From Candidatus Moranbacteria bacterium RIFOXYA12_FULL_35_19 (GTDB lineage: Bacteria > Patescibacteriota > Minisyncoccia > Moranbacterales > UBA2206), in the NCBI GenBank assembly GCA_001784805.1, contig MFSE01000013.1:1-55764 (forward strand): DNA of 55,764 nucleotides, written 5' to 3'. This document shows positions 13,954 through 55,764 of this stretch, piece after piece. Every line of letters begins with the position of its first letter. Positions within the stretch are counted from its first letter, which is position 1. The translations under genes and the position numbers were made by a program. Below the pieces are notes generated by a model, which made no database searches, had not been told where the DNA came from, and worked only from the letters and a program-made list of their open reading frames with translations.

Positions 13954-13958
13954 AAATA

Positions 13959-15205: not shown

Positions 15206-15210
15206 AAAGT

Positions 15211-16479: not shown

Positions 16480-16495
16480 CCAAATTGAAATTGTG

Positions 16496-16599: not shown

Positions 16600-16668
16600 G
16601 AAAAATAACCCTTGTGCTAAGATTAACTTTGTTGCTTAAGTAATTAATAATTTTAAAAATAAAAACCA

Positions 16669-17022: not shown

Positions 17023-17033
17023 TTGTTCTCTTT

Positions 17034-17072
17034 AAAAAAACCGCTAGCTATCCAGTAGTCTAGCGGTTTTGT
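17034..17072. terminator. Bidirectional terminator
   Basis: CCGCTAG-loop-CTAGCGG flanked by an A-run and a T-run, between convergent genes. Confidence 0.7.
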
Positions 17073-17092
17073 ATTTTCGAAATTTATTTTTA

Positions 17093-18064
17093 TTATTTTT
17101 TATCGGATAACTTTTGAAAAATTCTTTTTCCAATCAGATAAAAAATCCAAATTATTAGCAAGAATACCGCTAGCGACGGAAGAGTAACAATCACAAAGCG
17201 AATCAGTCCATCAACAAGATCCTGCAAACTTTCGATCAATTCACTGAAAGATTTTTTGATCACTTGAATTGGACGCCAATCATTGCTCACAGGCGCAATC
17301 TCGATATCCTCGCTTACATCAATGGTAATGGTGGACATATTTGTTTGCGAATTCATAAGGCGGATTCGCCCTTCCAGTCTTTCAATTTCTCCCCGCACCC
17401 TAGCAATTTGTTGCGTGACTTTCAAAACATCTTCAATTTCGCCGGCTCTTTCCAAAATTTTCACAAAACTTTCTTCTTCCGCTTTCTTATTTTTCACTTG
17501 AATTTGGAGATCAGAATATTGTTCCGTCACATCCTGCCCGCTAGTTGATTCTGAAATAACTTGGGTAGCGGTTTCTTTTATTTTTACAATAGTATCTTCA
17601 AATTTTTCAACCGGCACCTTGACCGTGAGGCTTCCGCTTTTTTGTCCTTTCACTCTTTCAAAAAAATCCGTAGAAAAAACTTCCCCTCCTTGTTTTTTCA
17701 CAATTTCAGAAATCTTTTGCACCGCCGTTTCTGTTTTTTCCACTTTCAAACTAAGATTTCCATTTTTAATTATTTTTTTATCCGTCGGAATTGGACTTTC
17801 CACAGCACTCTCGGAAAAATTTTCTTCCATCATCATTTGGGGCGAATCAGGAGTGAAATCATCCGCCATTGGGTTTGCCAAACCCATCGAACCGTCAAAA
17901 CCTTTACTAGAAATACCCGCTGTATTGAAATTTGACGAAGATTTTCTCAAAACATTATTCGTTTTTCCCGTAAACAAATTAAACACTCCCCACAAAAAAA
18001 CCACTGCAATAATTATCCCAATAATTGTTAAAACTTTTTTCGCTTTTTCATTTAATGTAATCAT
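17093..18064 (-). CDS. DUF4349-domain membrane protein
   Basis: N- and C-terminal TM helices. The central region (KIIKNGNLSLKVEKTETAVQKI...SGSLTVKVPVEKFEDT...DVTEQYSDLQ) matches the DUF4349 layout. Confidence 0.6.
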   Translation of the reverse strand: MITLNEKAKKVLTIIGIIIAVVFLWGVFNLFTGKTNNVLRKSSSNFNTAGISSKGFDGSMGLANPMADDFTPDSPQMMMEENFSESAVESPIPTDKKIIKNGNLSLKVEKTETAVQKISEIVKKQGGEVFSTDFFERVKGQKSGSLTVKVPVEKFEDTIVKIKETATQVISESTSGQDVTEQYSDLQIQVKNKKAEEESFVKILERAGEIEDVLKVTQQIARVRGEIERLEGRIRLMNSQTNMSTITIDVSEDIEIAPVSNDWRPIQVIKKSFSELIESLQDLVDGLIRFVIVTLPSLAVFLLIIWIFYLIGKRIFQKLSDKK

Positions 18065-18153
18065 TTTATTTTTTTAATTTTTACAACTCCATAATAGCAT
18101 CTTTTTATGGAAAATAAAATCCCCACAACCATTACAGGGATTTTTTATATTCT

Positions 18154-18227
<74 letters not shown>

Positions 18228-18233
18228 TAATTA

Positions 18234-18320
18234 GTTTGTAAAGTTGAAAGTTATAAAGTTTGTAAAGTAAATTTCCGCATTATAAGCTTTATGAACTTTA
18301 TAACTTTATAAACTTTCAAC
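18234..18320. repeat. Word-hairpin, CTTTATAA family, copy 1
   Basis: GTTGAAAGTTATAAAGT faces ACTTTATAACTTTATAAACTTTCAAC. It fills the tRNA-Gly/tRNA-Phe spacer and shares about 30 nt with 42899-42927. Confidence 0.65.
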
Positions 18321-18326
18321 TCATTG

Positions 18327-18401
<75 letters not shown>

Positions 18402-18409
18402 TAAAAATT

Positions 18410-19069
18410 CTAATATGAACTAAAAACTCCTTTTGCCCAACCAGATATTTTCAAAAATAATTCCGTATCACAAATATAAATATCGAACACTCCAAATGGC
18501 AATGTGTCTTTTTTATTCTTGCTAGATATATTTGTTTTTCTGTAAGTTTTAAAGAATTTTTTCAGTGGTATGTCCGCTATAGACGACCAATACTTTTCAG
18601 CTTTTTTATGATCCAGATGTGGATGAATATGAATATATCCTCTAAATTTTTCTTCTGACACATTGCAAACTCTTCGGAAAAAAGCCATCATTATTTTTAT
18701 CATTTCAGGATCACCATTGGAAAATCTTACCAATCCGCGTTGCGTTTTTCCACCCTCCGCCCAATACAGCATTATCCCCATTAGCCACAATTCTTTTTGT
18801 GATATTTTTCCAATCTGTTTTTCTGCTTTATCTAAAATAATTTGTCGCTTACCTTTTTCATTTTTCAATCTAGTCTGTCTTCTTTTTTCAACAACTTTTA
18901 TACTAGATACTTTTTTTGATAAAGCCTCAATTTGATCTAAATTTAATTCAATATTACGAACCCATATACTAACACTGCTCTTAGCAACACCGATCTTTTT
19001 GGCAATTTCCTTTATCGACAATCCCTTCTTTCGCAATCTTATCGAATCTTCCTTTTCTTTTTTTAACAT
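18410..19069 (-). CDS. HTH protein, possible LAGLIDADG-type homing endonuclease
   Basis: N-terminal resolvase-like HTH (GLSIKEIAKKIGVAKSSVSIW). WLMGIMLYWAEGGK resembles a LAGLIDADG motif. Sits between tRNA-Val and tRNA-Phe. Confidence 0.35.
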   Translation of the reverse strand: MLKKEKEDSIRLRKKGLSIKEIAKKIGVAKSSVSIWVRNIELNLDQIEALSKKVSSIKVVEKRRQTRLKNEKGKRQIILDKAEKQIGKISQKELWLMGIMLYWAEGGKTQRGLVRFSNGDPEMIKIMMAFFRRVCNVSEEKFRGYIHIHPHLDHKKAEKYWSSIADIPLKKFFKTYRKTNISSKNKKDTLPFGVFDIYICDTELFLKISGWAKGVFSSY

Positions 19070-19128
19070 AATCGAACTATTAAACTATTTACATAGTAAT
19101 TATAAATCACTAGTTCGATTTTAACAAG

Positions 19129-19201
19129 TGGATCCTGCAGGGCTCGAACCTGCGACATCTTCGATGTAAGCGAAGCGCTCTACCAACTGAGCTAAGGATC
19201 C
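19129..19201 (-). tRNA. tRNA-Val (anticodon TAC)
   Basis: Hand fold. Acceptor GGATCCT/AGGATCC, stem CTTCG/CGAAG, loop CTTACAT. Confidence 0.85.
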
Positions 19202-19209
19202 AAAATTCG

Positions 19210-19294
19210 TGCGAACGAGAGGACTCGAACCTCCAAGAAGTTGCCTTCATTAGCACCTCAAGCTAACGCGTATACCAAATTCCGCCACGTTCGC
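19210..19294 (-). tRNA. tRNA-Leu (anticodon GAG)
   Basis: Hand fold. Acceptor GCGAACG/CGTTCGC, stem TTAGC/GCTAA, loop TTGAGGT, long variable arm. Confidence 0.85.
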
Positions 19295-19376
19295 TTTTTC
19301 TTTATCTATTAATTCCTCGCCTTAATTTGACGAAATATTTCATCGAGTTGAAGCGGGCACTATACAAGCACAGAAA

Positions 19377-19823
19377 TTATTTCTTTTCTTCTTTCTTAAT
19401 TTCTTCTTTATCTTCTGTGTCATTCTGTTTTACTTCAGTGTTCTTCTGTGTATCTTCCTCTTTGATAAATTCCTTAATTTCCTTATATTTCATCCGGCTC
19501 TGTTTAGTGGTCAGCTCTCGAATATAATATAATTTTGCTCGGCGAACTTTCGCTTGCTTGATTAGTTTTATCTTTTCAACATTTTTAGAAAGAATTGGAA
19601 TAATCATTTCCACGCCAACTTCATGGGAAACTTTTCGCACTGTAAGCGTCGGAGAAGAACTTTGTTTTCCCTTCACAGCCAACACCAGACCCTTAAATAT
19701 CTGGACTCTTTCTTTTCCACCTTCTTTGATTTTGAGATAAACTTCCACCACATCTCCCGCCTTAAAATCAATCTTTTTGTTGCTTCTTAGATTTTTGTTG
19801 AATTCGATTGTTTTCTTATCCAT
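19377..19823 (-). CDS. rplS: 50S ribosomal protein L19 with a K/E-rich C-terminal tail
   Basis: FKAGDVVEVYLKIKEGGKERVQIFKGLVLAVKG...TVRKVSHEVGVE core. About 35 extra C-terminal residues. Confidence 0.9.
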   Translation of the reverse strand: MDKKTIEFNKNLRSNKKIDFKAGDVVEVYLKIKEGGKERVQIFKGLVLAVKGKQSSSPTLTVRKVSHEVGVEMIIPILSKNVEKIKLIKQAKVRRAKLYYIRELTTKQSRMKYKEIKEFIKEEDTQKNTEVKQNDTEDKEEIKKEEKK

Positions 19824-19840
19824 ATCTTTAAATATGTATT

Positions 19841-19903
19841 ATTCGCATGAGCAATTCGCATGAGCCGATTCGTAGCCGGCTATTCGCATACTGCCATTCG
19901 CAT
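19841..19903. repeat. Four copies of ATTCGCAT upstream of rplS
   Basis: ATTCGCAT at 19841, 19854, 19882 and 19896, flanking the AGCC/GGCT hairpin GCCGATTCGTAGCCGGC. Confidence 0.6.
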
Positions 19904-20026
19904 ACTTATTATAACAAATTATATCTTAAATAAAAAATTATCCCAATAAATTGAGAATTTAGGCTAATTTTAAAACTATTTTAGCTTTTTTATCTTAGCT
20001 TTTTATTGATGTTTAGTCAAGCCTCG

Positions 20027-20959
20027 CTATAAAATATGAGCCTTGAAATCATCTGGCAACTCAATTTCGAATTTAAAATTCTGACCGTTTAAATTAAATT
20101 CGATCTTTTTAGCGCAAAGCAAATGTCGAACAATATTTTCTTTTGCTTTCATATTTTTTAGCCGATATTTTTCATCTCCTAAAATTGAATGACCAATCGA
20201 AGAAAGATGAATTCTAATTTGATGCATTCGACCAGTTTTCGGTTTTACTTCTACTAATGAATAGTTTTCAAATTCTTGCAATACTTTATATTCTGTCACG
20301 GCTTCACGAATTTTAGTTTTCGTTTTTGCTCTGGCTATTGTTTGTTTTTTATAATCTGCTGATCGCGCCAATGGCGCATCAATCAAACCTTTTTTATTTT
20401 CCAATTTTCCATACACTAAAGCCCAATATGTTTTTTGAATTTCTCGATTTTTAAATTTACTTTTAAGCACTTCAAATGTTTTTTGATTTCTCGCGACAAG
20501 CATTATCCCGCTAGTATCCTTGTCCAACCGATGCACTATCCCGGGACGATTTTCTGGTTCATCTCCGACTTTTTTTATTTCCGGAAATTTATAAATTAAA
20601 CCATTAACCAAAGTGTCTTGTTCTTTTTTTGCACTCGGATGAACTTGCAACCCCGCCGGTTTATTTATCACAATAATATTTTCATCTTTGTAGATTATTT
20701 CAAATTTAATTTTAGAGCTTGAAATTATTTCTTTTTGTTTCATGCTATATGTTTCATGTTTCATGACTTCAATCGCATCATTCTCTTTTAAAATATAGCT
20801 CGGTTTAACTGTTTTATTATTCACGGTGATATTCCCCGATTTAATATTTCTAATAATTTCCCCGCGGGTAATTTTTTCATCATTCAAAAAAAATCCCTGC
20901 ATTAGGAATCTATCAACTCTTTGACCTGAATTTTCTTTTGTTATAATTATTTTTTTCAT
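20027..20959 (-). CDS. rluD: RluA-family 23S rRNA pseudouridine synthase (RluD-like)
   Basis: S4 domain, then HRLDKDTSGIMLVAR and GRMHQIRIHL motifs. Start set to the ATG at 20959 because the ORF-track extension overlaps tRNA genes. Confidence 0.85.
   Translation of the reverse strand: MKKIIITKENSGQRVDRFLMQGFFLNDEKITRGEIIRNIKSGNITVNNKTVKPSYILKENDAIEVMKHETYSMKQKEIISSSKIKFEIIYKDENIIVINKPAGLQVHPSAKKEQDTLVNGLIYKFPEIKKVGDEPENRPGIVHRLDKDTSGIMLVARNQKTFEVLKSKFKNREIQKTYWALVYGKLENKKGLIDAPLARSADYKKQTIARAKTKTKIREAVTEYKVLQEFENYSLVEVKPKTGRMHQIRIHLSSIGHSILGDEKYRLKNMKAKENIVRHLLCAKKIEFNLNGQNFKFEIELPDDFKAHIL
20737..20767. repeat. CATG-word element inside rluD
   Basis: GTTTCATGCTATATGTTTCATGTTTCATGAC encodes KHETYSMKQ. 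Near-copy of the intergenic 27200-27232. Confidence 0.6.
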
Positions 20960-20962
20960 TTG

Positions 20963-21046
20963 TGCCCAGAAGAGGACTCGAACCTCCAATCCCTTGCGAG
21001 AACCAGTTCCTAAGACTGGCGCGTATACCAATTCCGCCATCTGGGC
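20963..21046 (-). tRNA. tRNA-Leu (anticodon TAG)
   Basis: Hand fold. Acceptor GCCCAGA/TCTGGGC, stem CCAGT/ACTGG, loop CTTAGGA, long variable arm. Confidence 0.85.
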
Positions 21047-21065
21047 AAATTTATTCAATTTTTTC

Positions 21066-21125
21066 TCAATCCCTTGCGGGAATCCCGCCTTGGCGGGACG
21101 CGTATACCAATTCCGCCACCAAGGC
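21066..21125 (-). pseudogene. Decayed tRNA-Leu fragment (CAA-like), lacking T-arm and 3' acceptor
   Basis: The 5' part GCCTTGGTGGCGGAATTGGTATACGCG matches its neighbour's D-arm region exactly. The anticodon hairpin TCCCG-CCAAGG-CGGGA has a 6-nt loop. The variable arm is then followed by an A/T run instead of a T-arm. Confidence 0.6.
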
Positions 21126-21142
21126 AAATATTTTAAACCCAG

Positions 21143-21224
21143 TGCCGATGGTGGGACTTGAACCCACAAACCTTGCGGCACACGAACCTGAATCGTGCGT
21201 GTTTGCCAATTTCACCACATCGGC
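21143..21224 (-). tRNA. tRNA-Leu (anticodon CAG)
   Basis: Hand fold. Acceptor GCCGATG/CATCGGC, stem CACGA/TCGTG, loop TTCAGGT, long variable arm. Confidence 0.85.
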
Positions 21225-23203: not shown

Positions 23204-23968
23204 TTATAGCTTTTCTGGTAAAATATTCCAGAGCAAATTAAAGGTTAGTTTTTGAAGCTCAACCAATTCTTTGGATTCTATGATAATCGCCATTTTTTCT
23301 TCCCAAGAAACAATCAGCATTTTGTTGTTATAAATATTTACTTCCGGCGAAAAAGTCATTTCACTTTCTGGCAAAAATCGCGTTTCTCTCATTTCTTCTT
23401 GATTATGCTTTGAGCGTTCAATTGACAATTCATTCTGGGGAATAATAGCCCTGATAAAAATTTTATTTTTTGTTCTTCTAGCATAGTATTCCGGAAAAAA
23501 ATTCGGCAGTCCCTTGTGCATTGTTTCAACATTAGCATAAGCAAAAATAATTCCTTTTGAATTCAAAGTGTCTTCATAGGCTTCTCGCATGCCCTTTTCT
23601 CCTTCAAAAAATTGGATTTTTGGCTTGGCAGTATAGATATTTTGAAGAGAAATAAGTTGTGGTAAAAGTTCGGTGACTTTTTGTTTTTGTTTTTCGATTT
23701 CCTTGTCTTTTTCTTCTTTTTCTCGATCTAAATATGTTAAAAGATGTTTTGGCTCAAGCGCATTGAAAAAAGTCGAGGCGCCTTTTTTATATTTACTAAT
23801 CAACCCTTTTTGAAGCAAAACATCACAAATATCATAAATAGTCGTCCGATTAAGACCTGTTTTCCGAGATATTTCTTTGGCTTTCGCCGAACCCAACTCG
23901 ACAAGAGCCAAATATATCACTGTCTCTTTTTCAGAGAAGTTTAGTTGATTTAGGAGATTTTTTATCAT
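23204..23968 (-). CDS. TrmB-family transcriptional regulator, paralog 3
   Basis: wHTH EKETVIYLALVELGSAKAKEISRKTGLNRTTIYDICDVLLQKGLI. ATG at 23968 preferred because a TTGACA-17-TATACT promoter (24025-23997, minus strand) overlaps the upstream ATG. Confidence 0.75.
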   Translation of the reverse strand: MIKNLLNQLNFSEKETVIYLALVELGSAKAKEISRKTGLNRTTIYDICDVLLQKGLISKYKKGASTFFNALEPKHLLTYLDREKEEKDKEIEKQKQKVTELLPQLISLQNIYTAKPKIQFFEGEKGMREAYEDTLNSKGIIFAYANVETMHKGLPNFFPEYYARRTKNKIFIRAIIPQNELSIERSKHNQEEMRETRFLPESEMTFSPEVNIYNNKMLIVSWEEKMAIIIESKELVELQKLTFNLLWNILPEKL

Positions 23969-24148
23969 TTGTTGTGGAAAATATTTCGACACTTTTAGTA
24001 TATCAAACAAAGACTAGATTGTCAATTTCATAAAATAACCAGTCCACCAATAAACATCCTATCGCAACCTAATATATACTATTTTATTATGATAAAAATA
24101 AGTTTATCATAATAAAAAATAAATCATTTGAAAAAGAGGAGGAGGAAA

Positions 24149-24999: not shown

Positions 25000-25830
25000 A
25001 TGAATAACAAATTAGAAGAATTGGGTTTTAATAAAAAAGAAGCCCGAGTGTATATGGCTCTCTTAGAATCAGGACCGGCTCCTGTTTCTAAAATTGCACG
25101 CTTAGCAAAAATAAACAGAACGACTGGTTATGATATCTTAGAAAGATTAGTAGGGAAAAAACTAGTTAGACCCTCAAAGAAATCGGGAAAAATTGTTTAT
25201 ATAGCTGAAAATCCAGAAAATATTCAAAAACTCTTAGAAGAAGAGGCAAATAATTATTTAAGAATGTCAAAAAAAGCTTGTGAATTATTGCCGAATTTAA
25301 AATCTTTGTATCTTGAGATTGAAAACAAGCCGATTGTCAAATTTTATGAAGGATTAGAAGGCTTAAAATCACTTTATGAAGATAGTTTAACTAGTAGCGA
25401 AGAAATTCGTTCCTATACTTCAACTACTGACTTAAATGAAGTTCTGGGAAAATATGCGGAAGACTATTTTAGTAGAAGATCCTCGAAAAATATTTCTATT
25501 CGATCCATTGTACCAGTAGCTGAATACGGAATTAAGTTAAAACGTAATGGTCCAAAATTAAAGCGCTATGTTAAGCTTGTTCCTTCAGACCGCTTTGGCT
25601 TTTCGCCAGAAATCTATATTTATGATAACAAACTAACCGTTATGTCTTTACGAGAACGTTTTGGAGTTTATATTGAGAGCAAGGAAATATCTGAAGCGCT
25701 AAAAAAATCTTATGAACTTGCATGGGAACAAGCTGATAAATATGATAGAAAAATTGAAGAAGATATAAAAGCTGGCAAAGAAATTACCTTAACAAAAAAC
25801 GGTAAGCTTTATAAAAAATCCTTACAGTAA
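25000..25830 (+). CDS. TrmB-family transcriptional regulator, paralog 4
   Basis: wHTH KKEARVYMALLESGPAPVSKIARLAKINRTTGYDILERLVGKKLV. Confidence 0.8.
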   Translation: MNNKLEELGFNKKEARVYMALLESGPAPVSKIARLAKINRTTGYDILERLVGKKLVRPSKKSGKIVYIAENPENIQKLLEEEANNYLRMSKKACELLPNLKSLYLEIENKPIVKFYEGLEGLKSLYEDSLTSSEEIRSYTSTTDLNEVLGKYAEDYFSRRSSKNISIRSIVPVAEYGIKLKRNGPKLKRYVKLVPSDRFGFSPEIYIYDNKLTVMSLRERFGVYIESKEISEALKKSYELAWEQADKYDRKIEEDIKAGKEITLTKNGKLYKKSLQ

Positions 25831-27232: not shown

Positions 27233-27976
27233 TTATATCGCCACACTATTCCAAATCATATCAAAAATTGCCTTTTGCGCTTCGGCAAATTCGTGCGATT
27301 GGATAATAAAGCCTAATTTTTCCTCTTTCGTCGAAATCATCGCTACCTTGTCATCATAAATACAAACATATGGCTTGATAATAATTTCTTCTGGTACAAA
27401 CCGCACCTCGCGAAGTTCTTTGGCATGAATGATACCAGCTTCTCTTTCGGGTTTATATTTAAAAGAACGCAACGCTTGACTCTTGATTCCAGTCTTAATT
27501 CTTCTTTCTACAAAATCATCCACAAATTCCTTGCCCATCAACTCTTCCAAGTTAAAATCTGAAAGATAATATCTTTCTTTTTTCTCTTTATTGGTAAGAG
27601 CGTCTTCAAAAAGTTTTTTCATCCCACTGATATTTCGATAAATTTTAATTTCTGGTTGATAAATACCTGCGCCAAAAATATTTTTTAATTCAGGAATTGA
27701 ATATTGAATGATTTTTTTTCTTTCTTCTAGCAAATTATTCAGGCTAATTTCAGGATCTTCTGCTACGTAGAACTTTTTATTATCCAAAATAATTTGAACT
27801 ACCAAATTTTTTCCAAGCAAAGAATCCAAGCAATGATAAACGGTTGTTCTTTTGACTTCTGCCAATCTAGCAATCTGAGCCACAGTCGCTTTTTTGAGCT
27901 TTAAAAGAGCCAAATAAATGTCTTTTTCTTTGCCCAAAATACCTAAATATTCAAAATTTTTATCTAAATTTTCCAT
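27233..27976 (-). CDS. TrmB-family transcriptional regulator, paralog 5
   Basis: wHTH KEKDIYLALLKLKKATVAQIARLAEVKRTTVYHCLDSLLGKNLV. Confidence 0.8.
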   Translation of the reverse strand: MENLDKNFEYLGILGKEKDIYLALLKLKKATVAQIARLAEVKRTTVYHCLDSLLGKNLVVQIILDNKKFYVAEDPEISLNNLLEERKKIIQYSIPELKNIFGAGIYQPEIKIYRNISGMKKLFEDALTNKEKKERYYLSDFNLEELMGKEFVDDFVERRIKTGIKSQALRSFKYKPEREAGIIHAKELREVRFVPEEIIIKPYVCIYDDKVAMISTKEEKLGFIIQSHEFAEAQKAIFDMIWNSVAI

Positions 27977-30683: not shown

Positions 30684-32264
30684 CTATTCTACCCAATACT
30701 TCTTCTTCATTAATTCTTCCTCCTCTTTTTTTTCTTCTTCAATTTTTTTCTTAGCCATCACGCGAAGATCGTTAAGATCTTTTTTATTTAAAGCTTTCGC
30801 CAAATTTAATAAATCTTTTTTATTATTCAGTTTTTGATCATCAATCACCTCGGCTAGCATCACATCCAAGATTGCCCCGATTTTTGGTCCGGGTTGGATT
30901 TTTAAATCTTGAATTAGATCATTGCCATTAATTGCAAGCTGTTTAACTGAAATGGCATCATGCGAAACTTTTTCTACCATGAATTTGAAATGGCGCAGTT
31001 TGTATGGCACGGCTTTGGCCACGCCTGAACCCAACCGATCAGCAATTCGTACATCGATTAAATCATTGATATTTTCCACGCCAACTTTTTGCACTACCCG
31101 ACGCACACCTGATTCACCCACTTCATCTATGTTGTAGTAGAACATATGATTTTTCACAAGCATCACAGTTTTCTCAATAATTTTCCGAGGATATTTCATC
31201 CGTTCCAAAATTTTCTCCACCATTTTTGCCCCAACATATTCGTGCGAATAGAAAGTTGCCATTTCTCCCTCGCCTCTTTTTGATTTCGGTTTTCCAATGT
31301 CATGCAAAAATGAAGCCAAGCGCACTTCCAATTTTTCTGACGGACATTTTTCCAAACTTGCAAGAAGATGGGCATAAACCGTATTGTATGGTCCAAAATA
31401 ATGATGACGGTTTTGTTTCACGCCAATAGTTCCCAAAATTTCAGGAATAAAATAATCGATCAATTTTGTTTCCATTAAAAGTTCCACGCCCTTGCTTGGA
31501 TTTTTTGAAAGAATTATTTTATCAAATTCATCTCTAATTCTTTCGATTGAAACATATTTTAGATTTTTAGCATTTTTCTTAATCGCCTCGAAAGTTTTTT
31601 CTTCAATCTCCCATTCGCCTTCCCCCTTCTCCTTTATAAGGAGAGGGTTGCCCGCCTGCCGGCGAGGCAGGAGGTGAGGTGTATTTCTTCCGAGCTGAAC
31701 AGCGAAACGGATCGCTCTCATCATCCGAAGCGCATCCTCATCAAATCTTTCCCCCGCCTCCCCCACCGCGCGAATTATTTTATTCTTAAGATCTTTTTGC
31801 CCGCTGAACAAATCGATAATTTCATATTTGTTTTTTGTTTCATATTTCATGTTATATGTTACATGAATTGCCATAGCATTCACCGTAAAATCTCTTCTCG
31901 AAAGATCTTCTTCCAAAGTTTTGGCAAATTTCACCTCGTCTGGATGACGCTTGTCAGAATATTTTGATTCAATGCGATATGTCGTTATTTCCACATTCGG
32001 CCCATCCCAATCTTTTTCTTCTACGCCCTCAATATATTTCAAAGGCAACATCACTGTCCCAAAATCATTTTCATATTTCCCATCCGGAAAAATTTTCAAA
32101 ATCTCTTTCGGCTTCGCATTAGTCGCCACATCCCAATCCTTCGGATCCGCTCCCAATAATAAATCCCTCACACATCCACCCACCACAAACGCCTCAAAAC
32201 CAGCCCCTTCGAGCTTTCCAATAACTTCTATTATATAATGTGGAAATTCTATTTTTTTAGTCAT
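30684..32264 (-). CDS. cca: CCA-adding tRNA nucleotidyltransferase with HD domain
   Basis: GGCVRDLLLG and RRDFTVNA head-domain motifs, then an HD domain (FLHDIGK). 12 of the 13 tRNA genes here lack an encoded CCA. Confidence 0.85.
   Translation of the reverse strand: MTKKIEFPHYIIEVIGKLEGAGFEAFVVGGCVRDLLLGADPKDWDVATNAKPKEILKIFPDGKYENDFGTVMLPLKYIEGVEEKDWDGPNVEITTYRIESKYSDKRHPDEVKFAKTLEEDLSRRDFTVNAMAIHVTYNMKYETKNKYEIIDLFSGQKDLKNKIIRAVGEAGERFDEDALRMMRAIRFAVQLGRNTPHLLPRRQAGNPLLIKEKGEGEWEIEEKTFEAIKKNAKNLKYVSIERIRDEFDKIILSKNPSKGVELLMETKLIDYFIPEILGTIGVKQNRHHYFGPYNTVYAHLLASLEKCPSEKLEVRLASFLHDIGKPKSKRGEGEMATFYSHEYVGAKMVEKILERMKYPRKIIEKTVMLVKNHMFYYNIDEVGESGVRRVVQKVGVENINDLIDVRIADRLGSGVAKAVPYKLRHFKFMVEKVSHDAISVKQLAINGNDLIQDLKIQPGPKIGAILDVMLAEVIDDQKLNNKKDLLNLAKALNKKDLNDLRVMAKKKIEEEKKEEEELMKKKYWVE
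31619..31683. repeat. GC-rich palindromic module block inside cca
   Basis: CCCCTTCTCCTTTATAAGGAGAGGG + CCCGCCTGCCGGCGAGGCAGG + AGGTGAGGT, the same modules as at 36087-36162. Encodes TPHLLPRRQAGNPLLIKEKGEG on the minus strand. Confidence 0.7.
31838..31868. repeat. CATG-word element inside cca
   Basis: GTTTCATATTTCATGTTATATGTTACATGAA encodes HVTYNMKYET. Confidence 0.55.
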
Positions 32265-33145: not shown

Positions 33146-33889
33146 ATGATAAAAAACATTTTCAAAAAACAGCTGATTAGTCTTGGTTTTAGTGATCACG
33201 AGGCGGATATCTATCTAGTTCTACTAGAAAATGGACATTCTTCGACTGGACCAATTATCAAAAAAACTAATTTGCATCGAAATATCGTCTATGAAACACT
33301 AAATAAGTTAGTTAACAAGAAATTTGTTTCTGAATCTAATCAACGAGGCATAAAACACTACAAAGCTCTCAATCCAGAAAAAATATTGCATCATAAAGAA
33401 GAACAATTCAATCTTGCTCAAAATCTAATCCCCCAACTTAAGGATTTACAAACTAAAGAAAAAGTTGAGGTAGTTTTATATGAAGGTTTAAGCGGTTTTC
33501 AGACAGCTCTTAAAAACGCAATTGATAGAATTGCTCCCAATCAAAATATATTGGTTTTAGCAACTGGAGGAGAATTTTTTTACAAAAATATTGGCAATGC
33601 TCTTAAATATTACGACAAAAAAAGAAAAGAGAAAAAAATCAATATCAAAATGATTTATCAATCTTCCAAAAACGAAAGCCTGGCAAAAACTACACGCCTT
33701 AGACCACTTATGGAAGTTAAATATATTGAATCTCCTTTTTTGCCAATTTCTGAAATTGAAATTATGGAAAATACAATTTTAATGCAAATTTATTCTGATC
33801 CTCCCGTGGTAATTGAAATATCCAGCAAAGAAGTCGCTGATAGTTATAGAAATCACTTTACTGATCTTTGGGAGAAAGCTAAAAAATAA
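33146..33889 (+). CDS. TrmB-family transcriptional regulator, paralog 6
   Basis: wHTH DHEADIYLVLLENGHSSTGPIIKKTNLHRNIVYETLNKLVNKKFV. Confidence 0.75.
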   Translation: MIKNIFKKQLISLGFSDHEADIYLVLLENGHSSTGPIIKKTNLHRNIVYETLNKLVNKKFVSESNQRGIKHYKALNPEKILHHKEEQFNLAQNLIPQLKDLQTKEKVEVVLYEGLSGFQTALKNAIDRIAPNQNILVLATGGEFFYKNIGNALKYYDKKRKEKKINIKMIYQSSKNESLAKTTRLRPLMEVKYIESPFLPISEIEIMENTILMQIYSDPPVVIEISSKEVADSYRNHFTDLWEKAKK

Positions 33890-35077: not shown

Positions 35078-35148
35078 TGGACCTATGGAGAATTGAACTC
35101 CAGATTGATCCATGCCATGGATCCGTAATACCACTTTACTATAGGCCC
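35078..35148 (-). tRNA. tRNA-Ala (anticodon GGC)
   Basis: Hand fold. Acceptor GGGCCTA/TAGGTCC with the G3:U70 identity pair, stem GATCC/GGATC, loop ATGGCAT. Confidence 0.85.
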
Positions 35149-35234: not shown

Positions 35235-37115
35235 ATGATGAGTTTAATTTCTAAATTTTGGAATAATTTCAAAAATCAACCAGACATTTGGTTCTTTTTT
35301 GGGTTTTTATTAACTTTTACGCTAAGTATTAGGAAAGTAGTGTTATACTTTCTAATCCAAGGAACTTTCAATGAATATTCCGGAGTATTTATCTACCTTT
35401 CAGATGTTTTTCTAATTTTAACTCTAGTTTTCTGGTTTATATCTATATTATGCAATGATTTTACTGTTTTGTCAAGGTATAGGTTGTGGATAAGTAGTGC
35501 TTTCCACAAGTTATACATATTTTTACCCCTATTTTTAGTTTTTCTTTCTTTTATATCAATATTATGGTCACCCAATCAGTCAATAGCACTTTTTCGATCA
35601 TTCAAGCTTTTGGAGTTTTATTTACTATATATTTATATTATTTTTAGATTTGCTCCACAATTGTTCCACCCGCCTCATCGGCGGACAAACGTGGAACAAA
35701 ATACACCTCATCCTAACCTTCTCCTTATTAAGGAGAAGGAACTTGCCCCCCTCTCCTTTATAAGGAGAGGGGCTGGGGGTGAGGTAGAAATTGTTCCACG
35801 TGGAACATTTAATGCTTTCTCTTGGATTATAATACTATCCGGTCTCTTTCAAGCCACAATTGGCATAATTCAATTTTTCCTGCAAACATCTGTTGGTCTT
35901 TTTTTCCTTAAAGAAAGCCTAATTTCACCAAACATCCTCGGGGTCGCCAAAATAATCTTAAATGGAGAAATATATATCCGCGCCTATGGCCTTATGCCAC
36001 ATCCTAATGTTTTGGGTGGATTATTGCTATTTTCTATTATTATCACATTATTATATAAAAAAATGTTCCACGTGGAACATCAACTGCCCCCCTCTCCTTT
36101 ACAAGGAGAGGGGCAGGGGGTGAGGTTAAGCGATGTTCCACGCCCGTCTGCCGGCGAGGCAGATGGAACAATTAAAGAAAAATATTATTCTATGCTAAAT
36201 TGTTCCACGTGGAACAATTGGATAATTGAAAATAATTGGTTTTTTAGGCTCATATTAGCTATTCAAATTTTAGCGCTAATTTTAACATTCTCAAAATCAG
36301 CCATAATTGGGCTATTAATTGCTTTAGCTTATATAATTGTTCCATGTGGAACATTCAATATTCCCTTCTTCTTTATAAGGAGAAGGGCTGGGGATGAGGT
36401 ATGCGATTGTTCCATGTGGAACATTTTTGGGCGGGTGGAACATTTGAAATTAATAATACTCTCGATCTTAATTATTTTAGTATCTATATTTATCATAATC
36501 AAACCCAATTTGAACTCTTTATTTTTTAACTCCTTCGATGAGCGCGTATTTTATCTAAATGTTCCACGTGGAACATTTGGGAGTGATCCAGTCTTAGGAA
36601 TTGGCGCAGGACAATCAGTTATAATGATGCAAAAATTTTATTCTCAAACTTTAGAATTCTGGCAATATCAGCCTATTCATAATGTTTTTCTGCTAATATT
36701 TAGCGAACTAGGATTGCTTGGGTTGGGATTATTTGTTTGGTGGTTATGGAAATTGTTCCACCCGCCTCATCGGCGGACAAGCGTGGAACAATTTAAAAAT
36801 TCACCTCATCCTAACCTTCTCCTTATTAAGGAGAAGGAACTTGCCCCCCTCTCCTTTATAAGGAGAGGGGCAGGGGGTGAGGTTAAAATTGTTCCACGTG
36901 GAACAATAGAAAATAATGACTACATATTACACAATAATAATACATATTTGTCAAGTGCTATATTTTCTCGATATTTTACCGGAATTCTTTTAGGCCTCAT
37001 TTTTATTATGCTTTTTGACCATTATATCTGGGATATCCAACAGGGAAGCCTCCTATTTTGGCTAACTGCCAGCTTTGTTGCTGGGATATGCAAAAAATAT
37101 TCCCTTCATAATTAA
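35235..37115 (+). CDS. O-antigen ligase/polymerase-like (Wzy_C) membrane protein with five in-frame repeat blocks
   Basis: Many TM helices. FSKSAIIGLLIALAYI, GIGAGQ and HNVFLLIFSELGLLGLGLF resemble O-antigen ligase family motifs. The ORF stays open across all repeat blocks. Confidence 0.6.
   Translation: MMSLISKFWNNFKNQPDIWFFFGFLLTFTLSIRKVVLYFLIQGTFNEYSGVFIYLSDVFLILTLVFWFISILCNDFTVLSRYRLWISSAFHKLYIFLPLFLVFLSFISILWSPNQSIALFRSFKLLEFYLLYIYIIFRFAPQLFHPPHRRTNVEQNTPHPNLLLIKEKELAPLSFIRRGAGGEVEIVPRGTFNAFSWIIILSGLFQATIGIIQFFLQTSVGLFFLKESLISPNILGVAKIILNGEIYIRAYGLMPHPNVLGGLLLFSIIITLLYKKMFHVEHQLPPSPLQGEGQGVRLSDVPRPSAGEADGTIKEKYYSMLNCSTWNNWIIENNWFFRLILAIQILALILTFSKSAIIGLLIALAYIIVPCGTFNIPFFFIRRRAGDEVCDCSMWNIFGRVEHLKLIILSILIILVSIFIIIKPNLNSLFFNSFDERVFYLNVPRGTFGSDPVLGIGAGQSVIMMQKFYSQTLEFWQYQPIHNVFLLIFSELGLLGLGLFVWWLWKLFHPPHRRTSVEQFKNSPHPNLLLIKEKELAPLSFIRRGAGGEVKIVPRGTIENNDYILHNNNTYLSSAIFSRYFTGILLGLIFIMLFDHYIWDIQQGSLLFWLTASFVAGICKKYSLHN
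35661..35807 (+). repeat. Composite palindromic element A1 (147 nt, 49 codons)
   Basis: GTTCCAC[21-nt hairpin]GTGGAAC, then CCTTCTCCTTATTAAGGAGAAGG, CCCCTCTCCTTTATAAGGAGAGGGG, GGGGGTGAGGT and TGTTCCACGTGGAACA. Confidence 0.85.
36063..36218 (+). repeat. Composite palindromic element B
   Basis: ATGTTCCACGTGGAACAT, then CCCCCCTCTCCTTTACAAGGAGAGGGGCAGGGGGTGAGGT, then GTTCCAC[GCCCGTCTGCCGGCGAGGCAG]ATGGAAC, then ATTGTTCCACGTGGAACAAT. Confidence 0.85.
36338..36442 (+). repeat. Composite palindromic element C
   Basis: Two TGTTCCATGTGGAACA palindromes flank CCCTTCTTCTTTATAAGGAGAAGGGCTGGGGATGAGGT. An inverted half-copy GGGCGGGTGGAACA follows. Confidence 0.8.
36558..36577 (+). repeat. Solo palindrome AATGTTCCACGTGGAACATT
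   Basis: 20-bp perfect palindrome encoding NVPRGTF. Confidence 0.8.
36753..36905 (+). repeat. Composite palindromic element A2 (153 nt, 51 codons)
   Basis: Near-identical to A1. It differs by a few substitutions and one 6-nt indel. Confidence 0.85.
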
Positions 37116-42183: not shown

Positions 42184-42846
42184 TTATTCGATGTCCATAA
42201 TCACAACTGACATTTCTTTTTCTTCTAGGTCTTTCTTTTTTATGTTAATTTTAGAAACTTTTTCTTTGGGACAACTGCCAATTTCACTACAAAATTTCTT
42301 TTCGTCATCAACCTCAACTGTTGAGCCTTTTATCTTATAATGCATTGGAATAATCATTTTTGGTTCAATTTTTTTGATTATATCCACTGCCTTTTCTCCG
42401 TCAATCGTATAATTTCTTCCGCCAATCGGTACCATTAAAATATCAATGCCGTTTATTTTTTCCAATTGTTTTTCTGATAAATCAGTTCCCAAATCGCCCA
42501 AATGGCAAACTCGCAAATCTTCCGATTCTAAAACAAAAATAGTATTCGTTCCGCGTTCCGTGCCTTCTTTGTTATCATGAAAAGAAGTAATTCCAATAAC
42601 ATTGACGCCCTTGGCGCTATATTCCCCTGGGATATCAATCACATACGGCTCGCCTTTAAGCGCAGAAACATTATTATGATCAGCGTGATTGTGACTTACC
42701 AAAACTAAATCCGCTTGTCCTTGCGGAGGACGAAGACCGACTGACTTGTCAAACGGATCAAAAAAAACCACCACATCTTCCCGCCCGCGCCCCGCTGGCT
42801 TGGTAGTGATCTTAAAGCAAGAATGGCCATAATATTGAATAAGCAT
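42184..42846 (-). CDS. MBL-fold metal-dependent hydrolase (UPF0173-like)
   Basis: MLIQYYGHSCFKI and LVSHNHADHNN motifs. Confidence 0.8.
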   Translation of the reverse strand: MLIQYYGHSCFKITTKPAGRGREDVVVFFDPFDKSVGLRPPQGQADLVLVSHNHADHNNVSALKGEPYVIDIPGEYSAKGVNVIGITSFHDNKEGTERGTNTIFVLESEDLRVCHLGDLGTDLSEKQLEKINGIDILMVPIGGRNYTIDGEKAVDIIKKIEPKMIIPMHYKIKGSTVEVDDEKKFCSEIGSCPKEKVSKINIKKKDLEEKEMSVVIMDIE

Positions 42847-42852
42847 AGGTGA

Positions 42853-42936
42853 GTTGAAAGTTTGTAAAGTATAAAGTCTATAAAGCTACTTGAATAACTT
42901 TATGAACTTTATTAACTTTATAAACTTTATAAACTT
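42853..42936. repeat. Word-hairpin, CTTTATAA family, copy 2
   Basis: GTTGAAAGTTTGTAAAGTATAAAG faces CTTTATGAACTTTATTAACTTTATAAACTTT. Confidence 0.65.
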
Positions 42937-43083
42937 TTTTAACTATTCTAGTCTAGCATCTAAAAAGACACTTGTCGAGGTTGCTTTTTGTAAAATTATG
43001 CGCTAGGATTTCGAGAAAGGAGAAAATAGGGAGAATTGAACATTAACAGCTTAATACTACTGATTAACATAAGGGAGAATTAA

Positions 43084-43290
43084 ATGGAAAAACAACAAAA
43101 GAAAACCACTAGGCAGGAACAATTAGGAATAATGCTTGCTGATAGCATTATTGAAGTTGCTCATCAAACTTATAATGCTTCTAGAGGAAAAGCAATAATA
43201 GAAGCATGCATAAAAAGACTCCAAGAAAGAATGCCAGAAATCCAACCAAAAAAAGCTACTCTGCAATACAAGAAAGCGCGCTATGGCTAA
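43084..43290 (+). CDS. Hypothetical small protein (68 aa)
   Basis: SD AAGGGAGA before the ATG. Confidence 0.45.
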   Translation: MEKQQKKTTRQEQLGIMLADSIIEVAHQTYNASRGKAIIEACIKRLQERMPEIQPKKATLQYKKARYG

Positions 43291-43321
43291 AATTACCTCA
43301 TAACTTTAAAGGAGACGAATC

Positions 43322-43657
43322 ATGAAAAAACCGGCAATCATGGTAAGATTGGGAGTAACCACCCACAAAAAACTGGTCGAATTGATTAAAAAAAATGCAG
43401 GAGGAGGACGGGAAATCAGTATACTTAAACATACTAATGATACCACCCTCATTATCATCACAAACTATTATCATAAACCGGCGCTTCGAGAGACCATCTG
43501 CGTAAAAGATACTATTATTTACGCATCAGAGATGATTGGCTTTCTTACTAATCTCTTGCTCAAAGCTAATCTGGCATTCGTTTATGAGCCAGAGCTTGAG
43601 ATGCAGGATTATCTTCAAGAACTGATCCGGAATTTCACTTTAAATCGTCAGCCTTAA
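43322..43657 (+). CDS. Hypothetical protein (111 aa)
   Basis: SD AAAGGAGA before the ATG. Confidence 0.45.
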   Translation: MKKPAIMVRLGVTTHKKLVELIKKNAGGGREISILKHTNDTTLIIITNYYHKPALRETICVKDTIIYASEMIGFLTNLLLKANLAFVYEPELEMQDYLQELIRNFTLNRQP

Positions 43658-43856
43658 ATCATCAACAATACATTGCCCTTTTCAAGCTCGGAATGCTACA
43701 CAGCGTTTCGGGCTTTTTTATTTCCCAAATTATTTGACTAATAAGCTAATTAACGCTAATTTAATCTTAGGTAGTTTCCAAGGAGGAAATCAACGATTTG
43801 GGGATTTTTTAAGTAGTTCGTTAACAATTAGAACTTCATACTAAAGGAGGTGCGTT

Positions 43857-44009
43857 ATGAAGTATTGGTGTAAAAAACATAAGAGATCAGTTTCAGCCAA
43901 AAAAGCTAGCACTAAATGTTTATTACACAATGCCCATACTAGGTGCAAGCATCTTGTCAAAAAAAGAGCTTGCAAAAAAAATCTTAGAGATGAAAGGATA
44001 AAATCATGA
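43857..44009 (+). CDS. Lys/Cys/His-rich microprotein (50 aa), not in the ORF track
   Basis: MKYWCKKHKRSVSAKKASTKCLLHNAHTRCKHLVKKRACKKNLRDERIKS. SD AAAGGAGG lies 6 nt upstream. Its stop overlaps the next start (ATGA). Confidence 0.5.
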   Translation: MKYWCKKHKRSVSAKKASTKCLLHNAHTRCKHLVKKRACKKNLRDERIKS

Positions 44010-51213: not shown

Positions 51214-51285
51214 TGGGACTGACAGGATTCGAACCTGTGACCAGGCGATTATGAGTCGCTCGCTCTACCACTGAGCTACAGTCCC
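51214..51285 (-). tRNA. tRNA with anticodon CAT (elongator Met or lysidine-modified Ile2)
   Basis: Hand fold. Acceptor GGGACTG/CAGTCCC, loop CTCATAA, T-loop TTCGAAT. No initiator features (no C1:A72 mismatch, no GGG/CCC in the anticodon stem). Confidence 0.8.
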
Positions 51286-51296
51286 TATATTTGTTG

Positions 51297-51370
51297 TGGG
51301 TATTACTGGACTCGAACCAGTGACCTTCACAATGTCAATGTGACGCTCTAACCAGCTGAGCTAAACACCC
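51297..51370 (-). tRNA. tRNA-Val (anticodon GAC)
   Basis: Hand fold. Acceptor GGGTGTT/AATACCC, stem TCACA/TGTGA, loop TTGACAT. Confidence 0.85.
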
Positions 51371-53738: not shown

Positions 53739-55764
53739 TTATATTTTCTTAATTGGTGCAATTGAAGCGGAAAGTTTTTTAAGTCCTGATTTAGAAAATG
53801 CTACAGTGATTATATCCCCCGCGCTGGCGACAATCAAGCCATCACCAAAAACCTCGTGTCGCACTCTATCGCCATCCTTAAAACATGAGACATGAAGCAT
53901 GAAGCATGAAACATCTTTTTCTAAAACTTGTTTATTTTCACTACTTTTATTCTTGCTACATGTTTCATGCCTGCCTGTCCGGTAGGCAGGTTTCATGTTA
54001 TATGACTTCAGTAAGTGCGGTGGTATATCGTCCAGAAATCGACTTGGCGCATTAATTTGAGTAGAACCAAAAATATTTCTCATACGAGTAAAAAGCAAAT
54101 AAACTTTTTCCATTGCCCGAGTTACCCCGACATACATCAGCCGTCTTTCTTCTTCCATTTCACCGTCATCTAACATACTTCGGGAATGGGGCAAAATTCC
54201 TTCTTCCAACCCCGCGATAAAAACAATCTTAAATTCCAAACCTTTCGCGCTATGAAGCGTCATAAGATGTACTGCATCTTTCGCTTGGTCAATATTATCC
54301 GTATCAGAAACCAAAGCTACTTCTTCTAGAAATAATCTTAAACCCTCATTACTTTCATACTCGCTATATTTTTTGGCGACCGTCAAAAGTTCGCGTACAT
54401 TTTCATTTCTCATTTCTCCTTCCTCCGTTCCATCCATCAGAAATTTTTCATATCCTGATTCGCTATAAACTTTTTGAATGAAATCCGTAAGAATCAATTT
54501 TTCTTTAAGTTCACTCATTCTCTTAATAAATTCTGAAAACTTAACTATCGCATCAATTTTAGAAATTTGTATTTTATTTTTTGGAACCTGCCTGCCGGTA
54601 GGCAAAGTTTGATCATTAGAATTTGAAAATTCATTGGAAATTGCGAGGCCACAAGATATTAAATCTAAATTATTACTCCTAGCTATATTAATCCATTTTC
54701 CCAAAGTAATATCCCCGACGCCTCGCCTCGGTTCATTAATTATTCTTTCCAACGAAGTTTCGTCATTGAAATTGTTAATCAAACGCAAATAAGCAATTAT
54801 ATCTTTAATTTCTTTTCTTTGATAAAATTTCACTCCACCAATAATTCGGTAGGGAATAGAATTTCTAAGCATTGCTTCCTCAATCATCCGTGATTGCGCA
54901 TTGGTGCGATACAGCACCACAAAATCGGAAAACTTTAGTTTTCCGTCCTGAGCGCTTGCCTGCCGATGAGGCAGGAAAGCGAAGGACCCCATCCTATTAC
55001 CGCATAACTTCTTTATTTCACTTACGATAAACTGCGCTTCTTCTTTTTCATCTTCCGCTTCAAAGCTAAATAGCAAATGTCCGCTCTTATTATCCGTCCA
55101 AATTTTTTTGTCTTTGCGATTGATATTTTTAGAAATCACGCCATAAGCCGCGTCCAAAATGTTCTGCGTGGAACGATAATTTTGTTCGAGTTTTATTATT
55201 TTTGCCTCGGGATAATCTTTTTCAAAATCTAAAATATTTTGAATGTTGGCTCCGCGCCATGAATAAATTCCTTGCCAGTCATCGCCCACCACGCACAGAT
55301 TTTTATATTTTTGCGATAATAATTTTACCAAAAGATATTGCGCATAATTAGTATCTTGATATTCATCCACCATAATATATTGGAAAAAGTTTTGATATTT
55401 TTCCAAAACTTCTGGAAATTTTTGAAAAATCTTAACTGTGATCATCAAAATATCATCAAAGTCCAAAGCGTCTTGTTCCTTCAATTTTTTCTGGTAATTT
55501 AAATATATTTTTGCCACCATTTCTTCAAAATATCCGCCCACTCCCGCTAAAAAATCTTCTGGCCCAATTAGTTCATTTTTTGCTTTGGAAATTGCACCTA
55601 AGATTGTTTTAGGTTTAAATTGATCAATATTTATTTCCATTTCTTTCATCACTTTTTTTATCAGCGCTAATTGATCTTGATCATCAAAAATATTAAAGGA
55701 ACTTTCGTATCCCACCTTCTCAATTTCCCGCCTTAAAATTTTCACACAAATAGAATGAAAAGTC
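53739..55764 (-). CDS. pcrA: UvrD/PcrA-family ATP-dependent DNA helicase; 5' end beyond the window
   Basis: MVDEYQDTNYAQY, NYRSTQNIL, MTLHSAKGLEF and YVGVTRA motifs. The Walker A region is absent because the ORF runs to the window edge. Confidence 0.9.
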   Translation of the reverse strand, partial: TFHSICVKILRREIEKVGYESSFNIFDDQDQLALIKKVMKEMEINIDQFKPKTILGAISKAKNELIGPEDFLAGVGGYFEEMVAKIYLNYQKKLKEQDALDFDDILMITVKIFQKFPEVLEKYQNFFQYIMVDEYQDTNYAQYLLVKLLSQKYKNLCVVGDDWQGIYSWRGANIQNILDFEKDYPEAKIIKLEQNYRSTQNILDAAYGVISKNINRKDKKIWTDNKSGHLLFSFEAEDEKEEAQFIVSEIKKLCGNRMGSFAFLPHRQASAQDGKLKFSDFVVLYRTNAQSRMIEEAMLRNSIPYRIIGGVKFYQRKEIKDIIAYLRLINNFNDETSLERIINEPRRGVGDITLGKWINIARSNNLDLISCGLAISNEFSNSNDQTLPTGRQVPKNKIQISKIDAIVKFSEFIKRMSELKEKLILTDFIQKVYSESGYEKFLMDGTEEGEMRNENVRELLTVAKKYSEYESNEGLRLFLEEVALVSDTDNIDQAKDAVHLMTLHSAKGLEFKIVFIAGLEEGILPHSRSMLDDGEMEEERRLMYVGVTRAMEKVYLLFTRMRNIFGSTQINAPSRFLDDIPPHLLKSYNMKPAYRTGRHETCSKNKSSENKQVLEKDVSCFMLHVSCFKDGDRVRHEVFGDGLIVASAGDIITVAFSKSGLKKLSASIAPIKKI
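53880..54010. repeat. CATG-word inverted repeat with an embedded 21-nt GC hairpin, inside the helicase gene
   Basis: AAAACATGAGACATGAAGCATGAAGCATGAAACATC (53880-53914) faces GCTACATGTTTCATG[CCTGCCTGTCCGGTAGGCAGG]TTTCATGTTATATGACTTC (53955-54010). Confidence 0.75.
54945..54987. repeat. GC-rich layered hairpin inside the helicase gene
   Basis: GTCCTGAGCGCTTG-CCTGCC-GATGA-GGCAGG-AAAGCGAAGGAC encodes GSFAFLPHRQASAQD. A degenerate copy lies at 54587-54607 (LPTGRQV). Confidence 0.7.

Follow-up and report, generated by a model that had tools for sequence, protein, structure and literature searches.

A Wzy_C-like (O-antigen-ligase-like) gene of Candidatus Moranbacteria bacterium RIFOXYA12_FULL_35_19 probably carries the chromosomal parS centromere cluster of this Moranbacteria-type bacterium of the candidate phyla radiation (CPR; Patescibacteria), a reading to which we assign a probability of about 0.75. 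The gene is the open reading frame (ORF) at 35235..37115 (+) of a 55,764-nt stretch of contig MFSE01000013.1, here called the window, and on the basis of the ORF list and a Pfam match it is predicted to encode a polytopic membrane protein; it is host to all of the sites described below. The palindrome repeated in it is identical in sequence to parS, confined to the host gene, conserved across 80 species, and constrained at the level of DNA. By analogy with other bacteria, we infer that ParB would bind these sites and that they would have a role in segregation. What is new is a dense parS array inside one conserved membrane-protein ORF across a CPR clade, with sites in three reading frames and some of them split by hairpins. 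The searchable literature yielded no account of parS in CPR, Patescibacteria, or Moranbacteria.

The parS palindrome and its conservation

The 14-mer GTTCCAYGTGGAAC occurs seven times in the window (at 35793, 36065, 36202, 36339, 36409, 36561, and 36891), always inside the 35235..37115 ORF, and its expected count in the shuffled window is 0.01. Every intact copy is a full 16-mer, TGTTCCA(C/T)GTGGAACA; five sites are exactly TGTTCCACGTGGAACA, and two are TGTTCCATGTGGAACA, which differs by one central base (C>T). There are no further matches to the 16-mer in the rest of the 55.7-kb window, even when 2 mismatches are allowed. The perfect palindromic parS of Pseudomonas aeruginosa (parS2/parS3) is TGTTCCACGTGGAACA (PMC4368675 Table 1). 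The near-universal chromosomal parS consensus, which is bound by ParB/Spo0J, is TGTTNCACGTGAAACA, and the same 16-mer is used by Pseudomonas putida, with TGTTCCACGTGGAACG as the site in Myxococcus xanthus (PMC7022226 Table 1). The 16-mers of the window fit the consensus TGTTNCACGTGAAACA.

No strand is assigned to the individual sites. Those with the perfect 16-mer are parS 1 (35792..35807, read as IVPRGT and identical to P. aeruginosa parS2/3 [PMC4368675]), parS 2 (36064..36079, MFHVEH), parS 3 (36201..36216, CSTWN), parS 6 (36560..36575, NVPRGT), and parS 7 (36890..36905, IVPRGT). The parS 6 site lies at an orthologue-conserved position, which reads VPRGT, VSRGT, or VSRET. The two TGTTCCATGTGGAACA sites, with one central mismatch, are parS 4 (36338..36353, IVPCGT) and parS 5 (36408..36423, CSMWN), and an orphan right half-site, GTGGAACA, is found 3' of parS 5 at 36435-36442. 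Three further sites are split. At 35662..35698, a 21-nt GC-rich mini-hairpin, CCGCCTCATCGGCGGACAAAC (35670-35690), lies between the half-sites TGTTCCAC and GTGGAACA, and the split site at 36754..36790 is a copy of this arrangement with one substitution in the insert. The third, at 36134..36170, is degenerate and consists of TGTTCCAC, the GC-rich hairpin GCCCGTCTGCCGGCGAGGCAGA, and TGGAACA.

Homologues of the Wzy_C-like protein in Candidatus Moranbacteria and Parcubacteria are 396 to 924 aa in length. For comparison, we used 80 orthologous loci from genomes of different Moranbacteria/Parcubacteria species, which were chosen by two peptide patterns unrelated to the palindrome, and in these loci the parS-type 14-mer was counted at no more than one mismatch. 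All 80 loci contain such sites, with 2 to 18 per gene. In total, 649 sites fall in 135 kb of gene sequence versus 10 in 1.167 Mb of flanks, a density ~560-fold higher in the gene. Two of the 10 flank matches are exact and lie at gene edges, and the other eight contain a mismatch; ~0.5 would be expected by chance. The T and A that border the 14-mer are absent from the search pattern, and each is 99% conserved (666 sites, 81 loci). As many as 546 of these 666 sites (82%) are exactly GTTCCACGTGGAAC, though identity among the proteins falls to ~30 to 40%. The main variable base is the "N" of the consensus (C, 89%; T, 11%), and the extended conserved site across the loci is AAwTGTTCCACGTGGAACAwTT.

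No parS sites were present within 10 kb of dnaA in three relatives, including in the two other Wzy_C paralogues located there. These tandem paralogues (in loci L097, L099, and L101) belong to a polysaccharide gene cluster adjoining rpmH-rnpA-yidC-jag-dnaA, and they are a useful internal control because they lack parS sites.

In 78 of the 80 loci, the gene is present as one uninterrupted ORF. Because it contains no stop codon in any frame, the palindrome can be read as VPRGT, CSTWN, or FHVE(H/Q), and the alignment identifies these peptides as three translations of one palindrome that recur in the same loops (289 VPRGT-type, 161 CSTWN-type, and 203 FHVE-type sites). The sites are grouped into about six loop "slots" across the orthologues, and the host gene tolerates them because the palindrome is stop-free in all frames and is located in loop-coding segments. 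Gene length is correlated with site number (r = 0.65), at ~11.6 aa per site and with an intercept of ~505 aa. Within the motif, Pro is encoded by CCA in 99% of cases (37% elsewhere in the gene), Gly by GGA in 100% (38% elsewhere), Asn by AAC in 100% (22% elsewhere), and Phe by TTC in 94% (24% elsewhere). Arg in the motif is CGT in 99% of cases, whereas elsewhere in the gene AGA ranks first at 35% and CGT is outside the four commonest codons. The use of three reading frames at conserved loop positions and the frozen synonymous codons therefore argue for selection on the DNA and not on the peptide, and the orthologues indicate that the protein is maintained while the repeated unit is conserved as DNA.

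The host gene and its GC-rich hairpins

The ORF comprises 626 aa (1,881 nt including the stop codon) and matches Pfam Wzy_C (PF04932) with an E value of 4.3e-8 and 33.5 bits versus a gathering cutoff of 31.7 bits; the O-antigen-ligase-like enzymatic activity of the protein is putative. Five in-frame blocks of 147, 156, 105, 20, and 153 nt sum to 581 nt, or 30.9% of the ORF, and are located between hydrophobic segments of the protein. The AlphaFold model, which is of low confidence (mean predicted local distance difference test [pLDDT] score of 49), was used solely to note the non-helical, low-pLDDT nature of the blocks, which coincide with the non-helical stretches 139-191, 279-332, 370-403, and 507-572 of pLDDT < 50. 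Blocks 1 and 5 are near-identical, being a single 6-nt indel and a few substitutions apart, and the region of similarity begins precisely at AATTGTTCCAC and extends to GTGGAACA, i.e., with parS sequence at both ends. In the protein alignment, the nearest orthologue has the composite only at the position of block 5. These two observations suggest that block 1 arose recently from block 5, by copying within the gene or by gene conversion. Folded as DNA, block 1 reaches -46 kcal/mol (z = -10.9 versus shuffles). The identical 626-aa protein is present on 8 contigs from three sources (NCBI, ENA, and JGI assemblies), and the repeats are therefore not an assembly artefact. A tRNA gene (35078-35148) lies directly upstream of the host gene.

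Much of the initial annotation is borne out by these results. It had described an O-antigen-ligase-like ORF of 1,881 nt with in-frame repeat blocks, and the ORF is open and matches Wzy_C; the near identity of the 147- and 153-nt composites apart from a 6-nt indel, the share of the blocks in the ORF (given as about 30 percent), and the count of 7 intact and 3 interrupted copies of GTTCCAYGTGGAAC were all reproduced. Its placement of the blocks in loops between transmembrane segments agrees with both the hydrophobic segments and the low-pLDDT stretches. The palindrome itself, taken to be 14 nt long, is instead the 16-mer TGTTCCACGTGGAACA within the extended site AAwTGTTCCACGTGGAACAwTT, and the 20-nt solo palindrome at 36558-36577 is not an insert; it codes for NVPRGT, at a position that roughly half of the orthologues retain. 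As grounds for refutation, the annotation had named a pseudogene or misassembly, which is at odds with the same protein on 8 contigs and an intact ORF in 78 of 80 loci, and the retention of these segments by orthologues as protein domains; the palindrome is kept in the same loops, but as DNA, in three frames, and with frozen codons.

Superimposed on the palindromes are two kinds of GC-rich hairpin: a GGAGA-type hairpin with an ACCTCA...TGAGGT outer stem and a mini-hairpin of ~21 nt (CTGCC...GGCAG or CCGCC...GGCGG). A composite hairpin element at 35705..35785 (+) consists of ACCTCATCC, the GGAGA-type hairpins CCTTCTCCTTATTAAGGAGAAGG and CCCCTCTCCTTTATAAGGAGAGGGG, and then GGGTGAGGT; its second copy, at 36803..36883 (+), is 96% identical to the first over 110 nt. 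In addition, there are a single GGAGA-type hairpin with a GGGTGAGGT tail at 36089..36126 (+) and a diverged GGAGA-type hairpin (CCTTCTTCTTTATAAGGAGAAGG) with a GGATGAGGT tail at 36364..36400 (+). Of the parS sites in the orthologous genes, 37 are interrupted precisely between CAC and GTG, in most cases by GC-rich hairpins of 20 to 21 or 36 nt, and no split parS sites were found in 1.2 Mb of flanks.

The same hairpin family occurs in frame in the CCA-adding-enzyme gene (30684..32264, -), where it occupies 31622..31680 (-) and encodes the peptide NTPHLLPRRQAGNPLLIKEKGEGE. This insert is made up of a GGAGA hairpin with a GGTGAGGT tail and a nested 21-nt CTGCC...GGCAG mini-hairpin at ~31650-31671. 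The nested 21-mer, GCCCGCCTGCCGGCGAGGCAG, recurs among the sequences that interrupt parS sites in orthologous Wzy genes. The CCA site is free of any insert in about 40 of 51 orthologues, and the inserts found are 54 to 75 nt long; those of close relatives measure 54 nt, and the window copy differs from its nearest relatives by the extra, clean nested 21-nt insertion. No target-site duplication is evident at this insertion. The CCA insert of the window measures ~75 nt (~31610-31690), and at the same site L004, L006, and L015 carry AT-rich low-complexity inserts of 39 to 69 nt that are possibly decayed hairpin copies.

The mini-hairpin CTGCCGATGAGGCAG is located in frame in a UvrD-like gene at 54960..54974 (-), with the peptide FLPHRQAS. 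Beyond the host gene, hairpin copies were found in the CCA enzyme (in the window, twice in L005, and in L007/L008, L078, and L024), in UvrD (in the window and L089), in another Wzy_C gene (L101; CTGCC...GGCAG in frame), and at some intergenic positions. The UvrD/PcrA-like gene (53739-55764, -; 1232-3565 in L089) has two in-frame hairpin inserts, with the peptides FLPHRQAS and TPSPSPYKGEG, and runs off the right end of the window. Independent assemblies all end ~1.2 kb past this gene, contigs with the XerC-like protein likewise terminate shortly past the window's right end, and a lookup of the window UvrD ORF in the sequence collection gave no record.

The GC-rich hairpins behave like Rickettsia palindromic elements (RPEs) because they lie in frame in the CCA-enzyme and UvrD genes and most orthologues lack them. 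They resemble RPEs and intragenic repeats of the miniature inverted-repeat transposable element or repetitive extragenic palindromic type (PMC10969869) in being palindromic, nested, in frame in unrelated genes, and absent from most orthologues. Unlike RPEs, the hairpin modules measure 21 to 60 nt versus about 100 to 150 nt and have a low copy number in the sequence examined, and the dominant 16-mer palindrome stands outside this RPE-like family. No terminal inverted repeats or target-site duplications of the hairpin modules were identified. When the 31-aa composite hairpin peptide was searched against 1.84 billion representatives, 2 matches were obtained; the peptide is lineage restricted or too short for tracing.

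Chromosomal context, partition proteins, and rival explanations

The neighbourhood of the host gene shows conserved synteny among the 80 loci, with the CCA enzyme present in 52, a metallo-beta-lactamase (MBL)-fold protein in 54, gyrA in 46, S1 in 45, TilS in 40, and FtsH in 36. The distance from the host gene to dnaA is 2 kb in L021 and ~55 kb and ~62 kb on two long contigs. With a genome size of ~1 Mb (PMC9530719), 55 to 62 kb is roughly 5 to 6% of the genome. In the window, gene orientation and GC skew switch at 42846-44006, a region of small unannotated ORFs; genes to its left are on the minus strand and those to its right on the plus strand, and the divergent MBL/S1 junction near this region is syntenic in many relatives. 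An origin at the strand-switch region near 43 kb was considered and rejected, as there is no DnaA-box cluster there.

Several other features of the window were recorded. An ORF of 433 aa (58-1359, -), just beyond which the contig ends, has no Pfam match, and an identical protein is recorded in 35 blocks of the collection in at least three contexts: beside HSP20 and a restriction-modification (R-M)/DndB cluster, beside RecG, and beside glycosyltransferase genes. It is probably a mobile-element gene. An unusually large set of TrmB-family helix-turn-helix (HTH) paralogues of ~250 to 285 aa is encoded at 7427-8281, 9346-10119, 23204-24010, 25000-25830, 27233-27976, and 33146-33889, and TrmB-family-like genes also flank the dnaA regions in relatives. 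The window contains thirteen tRNA genes, eleven of them within 13131-21224 and 51214-51370, mostly on the minus strand.

The mechanism of ParB action has been reviewed (PMC7333895). By analogy with ParABS systems elsewhere, ParB dimers would recognise each TGTTCCACGTGGAACA, and CTP-bound ParB would close into clamps that slide and spread onto the adjoining DNA. The resulting partition complex would be moved by ParA, load SMC, or both. The number of sites (2 to 18 per gene) would drift through duplication, loss, and conversion while the ORF stays open. Small hairpin elements would subsequently settle in these permissive loops and at the centres of the palindromes, and those that sit exactly at parS centres would split the sites.

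Several points weigh against such a centromere. The two CAT variants and the split sites are only putative ParB targets. Up to 18 sites lie within 2 kb of transcribed and translated DNA, where transcription might be hindered by ParB roadblocks and vice versa, and to our knowledge this site density is above that of any characterised chromosomal centromere. The window contains neither dnaA nor a DnaA-box cluster, so that proximity to the origin is only approximate, and the turn of GC skew at ~43 kb merely follows gene orientation. No ParB or ParA gene was detected in the window, the ±10-kb flanks of the 80 loci, or the three dnaA regions, which are only a few neighbourhoods, and named Moranbacteria were absent among the top 120 homologues of a Parcubacteria ParB.

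The phmmer searches of the window and the 80 loci for ParB and ParA used Spo0J and Soj as queries, and the negative ParB search is meaningful because the same Spo0J query recovered 119 ParB ORFs from a metagenome scan (GERRxRA codon pattern). One of these ParB proteins is a member of the Candidatus Paceibacterota/Minisyncoccales cluster designated ParB/RepB/Spo0J, and a second comes from Dojkabacteria; two others have ParB_N, HTH_ParB, and ParB_C domains. A parA-parB operon is present on a 656-kb Paceibacterota contig, and homologues of the Paceibacterota ParB contain ParB_N and HTH_ParB. ParB and parA-parB are thus present in sister Parcubacteria (Paceibacterota and Minisyncoccales) and in Dojkabacteria, and in Moranbacteria itself ParB is only putative. 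A DUF4446 protein is encoded at 1769-2296 (+), immediately before infB. Its homologue directly follows parB in about a dozen AT-rich loci from metagenomes. The region upstream of the DUF4446 gene in the window and in other assemblies of the organism has no parB and contains methyltransferase, solute-binding protein, and type IV secretion system pilin genes instead.

The view taken in the initial annotation was that all of the blocks, including the 14-mer, are selfish palindromic mobile elements that insert in frame as RPEs do. Precedent exists in the RPEs themselves (PMC10969869), blocks 1 and 5 are near-identical 147/153-nt composites, block content and length vary among orthologues, and the GC-rich hairpins lie in frame in other genes whose orthologues lack them. 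This view stands for the GC-rich hairpins, which occur in frame in several unrelated genes and are missing from ~40 of 51 CCA-enzyme orthologues. However, it does not extend to the 14/16-mer, and its core fails because the palindrome is the canonical ParB-binding parS (PMC4368675, PMC7022226). The 14-mer is not a dispersed selfish repeat, since it is absent from the rest of the window and almost absent from 1.17 Mb of flanks; it is restricted to one gene in the window and in the loci of 80 other genomes. A selfish repeat would be expected to be dispersed and decaying and not 82% invariant across species, and neither its conserved loop positions in proteins only ~30 to 50% identical nor its identity to a universal protein-binding site would be anticipated. 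As an account of all of the blocks, we consider selfish insertion improbable.

Similarly, it is quite improbable that the palindrome is the target of another DNA-binding protein, such as a transcription regulator, an R-M enzyme, or an uptake-signal receptor. ParB was not located in the Moranbacteria sequence inspected, and the window encodes many TrmB-type HTH proteins, several of them near the host gene. However, operators sit in promoters and not in 2 to 18 copies within one ORF, R-M and uptake sequences are dispersed genome-wide, and chromosomal ParB, which is encoded in related CPR lineages, is the only family known for exactly this 16-mer (PMC4368675, PMC7022226, PMC7333895). The palindromes could also act as mRNA hairpins after each transmembrane segment, with ribosome pausing or transcript stabilisation aiding membrane insertion. 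The position of the sites in loop-coding segments after hydrophobic helices, the very stable folding of the blocks, and the symmetric variant GTTTCACGTGAAAC, in which pairing is retained, would fit such a role, which we nevertheless hold to be very improbable: compensatory changes would be expected, yet 546 of 666 sites share a single exact sequence, and the T and A on either side, which look unpaired, are 99% fixed. Other Wzy_C paralogues in the same genomes lack the sites, a gathering-threshold Rfam scan of the window returned tRNAs only, an E-value scan of the gene gave sub-threshold miRNA-type hairpin noise, and the identity to parS would have to be accidental. That the repeats encode a functional peptide motif is hardly credible, even with NVPRGT at a conserved position in the family, as one DNA sequence yields three unrelated peptides, depending on the frame, and its codons are frozen; the same holds for a pseudogene or misassembly, given an intact ORF in 78 of 80 species and an identical protein assembled independently in 8 contigs from three sources.

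Comparison with known centromeres and implications

As a chromosomal parS cluster, the explanation that we prefer, the array uses the same 16-bp palindrome as the clusters of P. aeruginosa (parS1-4), M. xanthus (22 sites), and Corynebacterium glutamicum (10 sites) and as the Bacillus subtilis site inside spo0J. As in those clusters, several sites are found in one chromosomal region and are absent elsewhere (here, in the window, the flanks, and the dnaA regions), and, as spo0J demonstrates, parS can lie inside a gene. The parS in B. subtilis spo0J is read as NVPRET, analogous to NVPRGT in the window. Unlike in the known chromosomal clusters, all sites are packed into ~1.2 to 2 kb within one ORF, in three frames and numbering as many as 18 per gene; an order-level clade has the host gene and the loop positions in common; the sites do not adjoin parAB; and several are split by GC-rich hairpins. 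Dense, closely spaced binding sites in one compact centromere are also found in plasmids, such as F sopC (twelve 43-bp repeats) and R1 parC. However, the plasmid arrays consist of tandem repeats that do not encode protein and are bound by proteins specific to the plasmid, whereas the window sites are canonical chromosomal parS, irregularly spaced, and translated.

It is conceivable, although unlikely, that the Wzy_C-like gene now serves as a dedicated "centromere gene," recruited because its product is a polytopic membrane protein whose transertion (transcription coupled to translation and membrane insertion) tethers the ParB-parS complex to the membrane, and in which the 21-nt mini-hairpins may target palindrome centres, modulating the number of active parS sites. 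Such tethering would explain the retention of the cluster in one gene across the clade and, if true, could replace the polar anchoring proteins of larger bacteria in these ultra-small cells.

For an uncultivated lineage, the Moranbacteria of the CPR, a likely centromere has been identified from sequence alone, and the host gene would serve as a simple marker for the partition locus in fragmentary metagenome-assembled genomes. In annotation, the unusual peptides of such "O-antigen ligase" genes would count as by-products of DNA sites and not as protein domains. CPR genomes also contain hairpin repeats of very small size, which enter housekeeping genes in frame in the manner best known from Rickettsia. 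The array would be a natural case of dual coding, in which a 16-bp protein-binding site is kept 2 to 18 times per ORF and in three frames despite ~30 to 40% protein identity, and the trade-off between DNA-binding and protein-coding constraints is thereby directly measurable. It also raises the questions of how ParB loading and sliding would coexist with transcription of the host gene and whether expression of a membrane protein may help to position the centromere.

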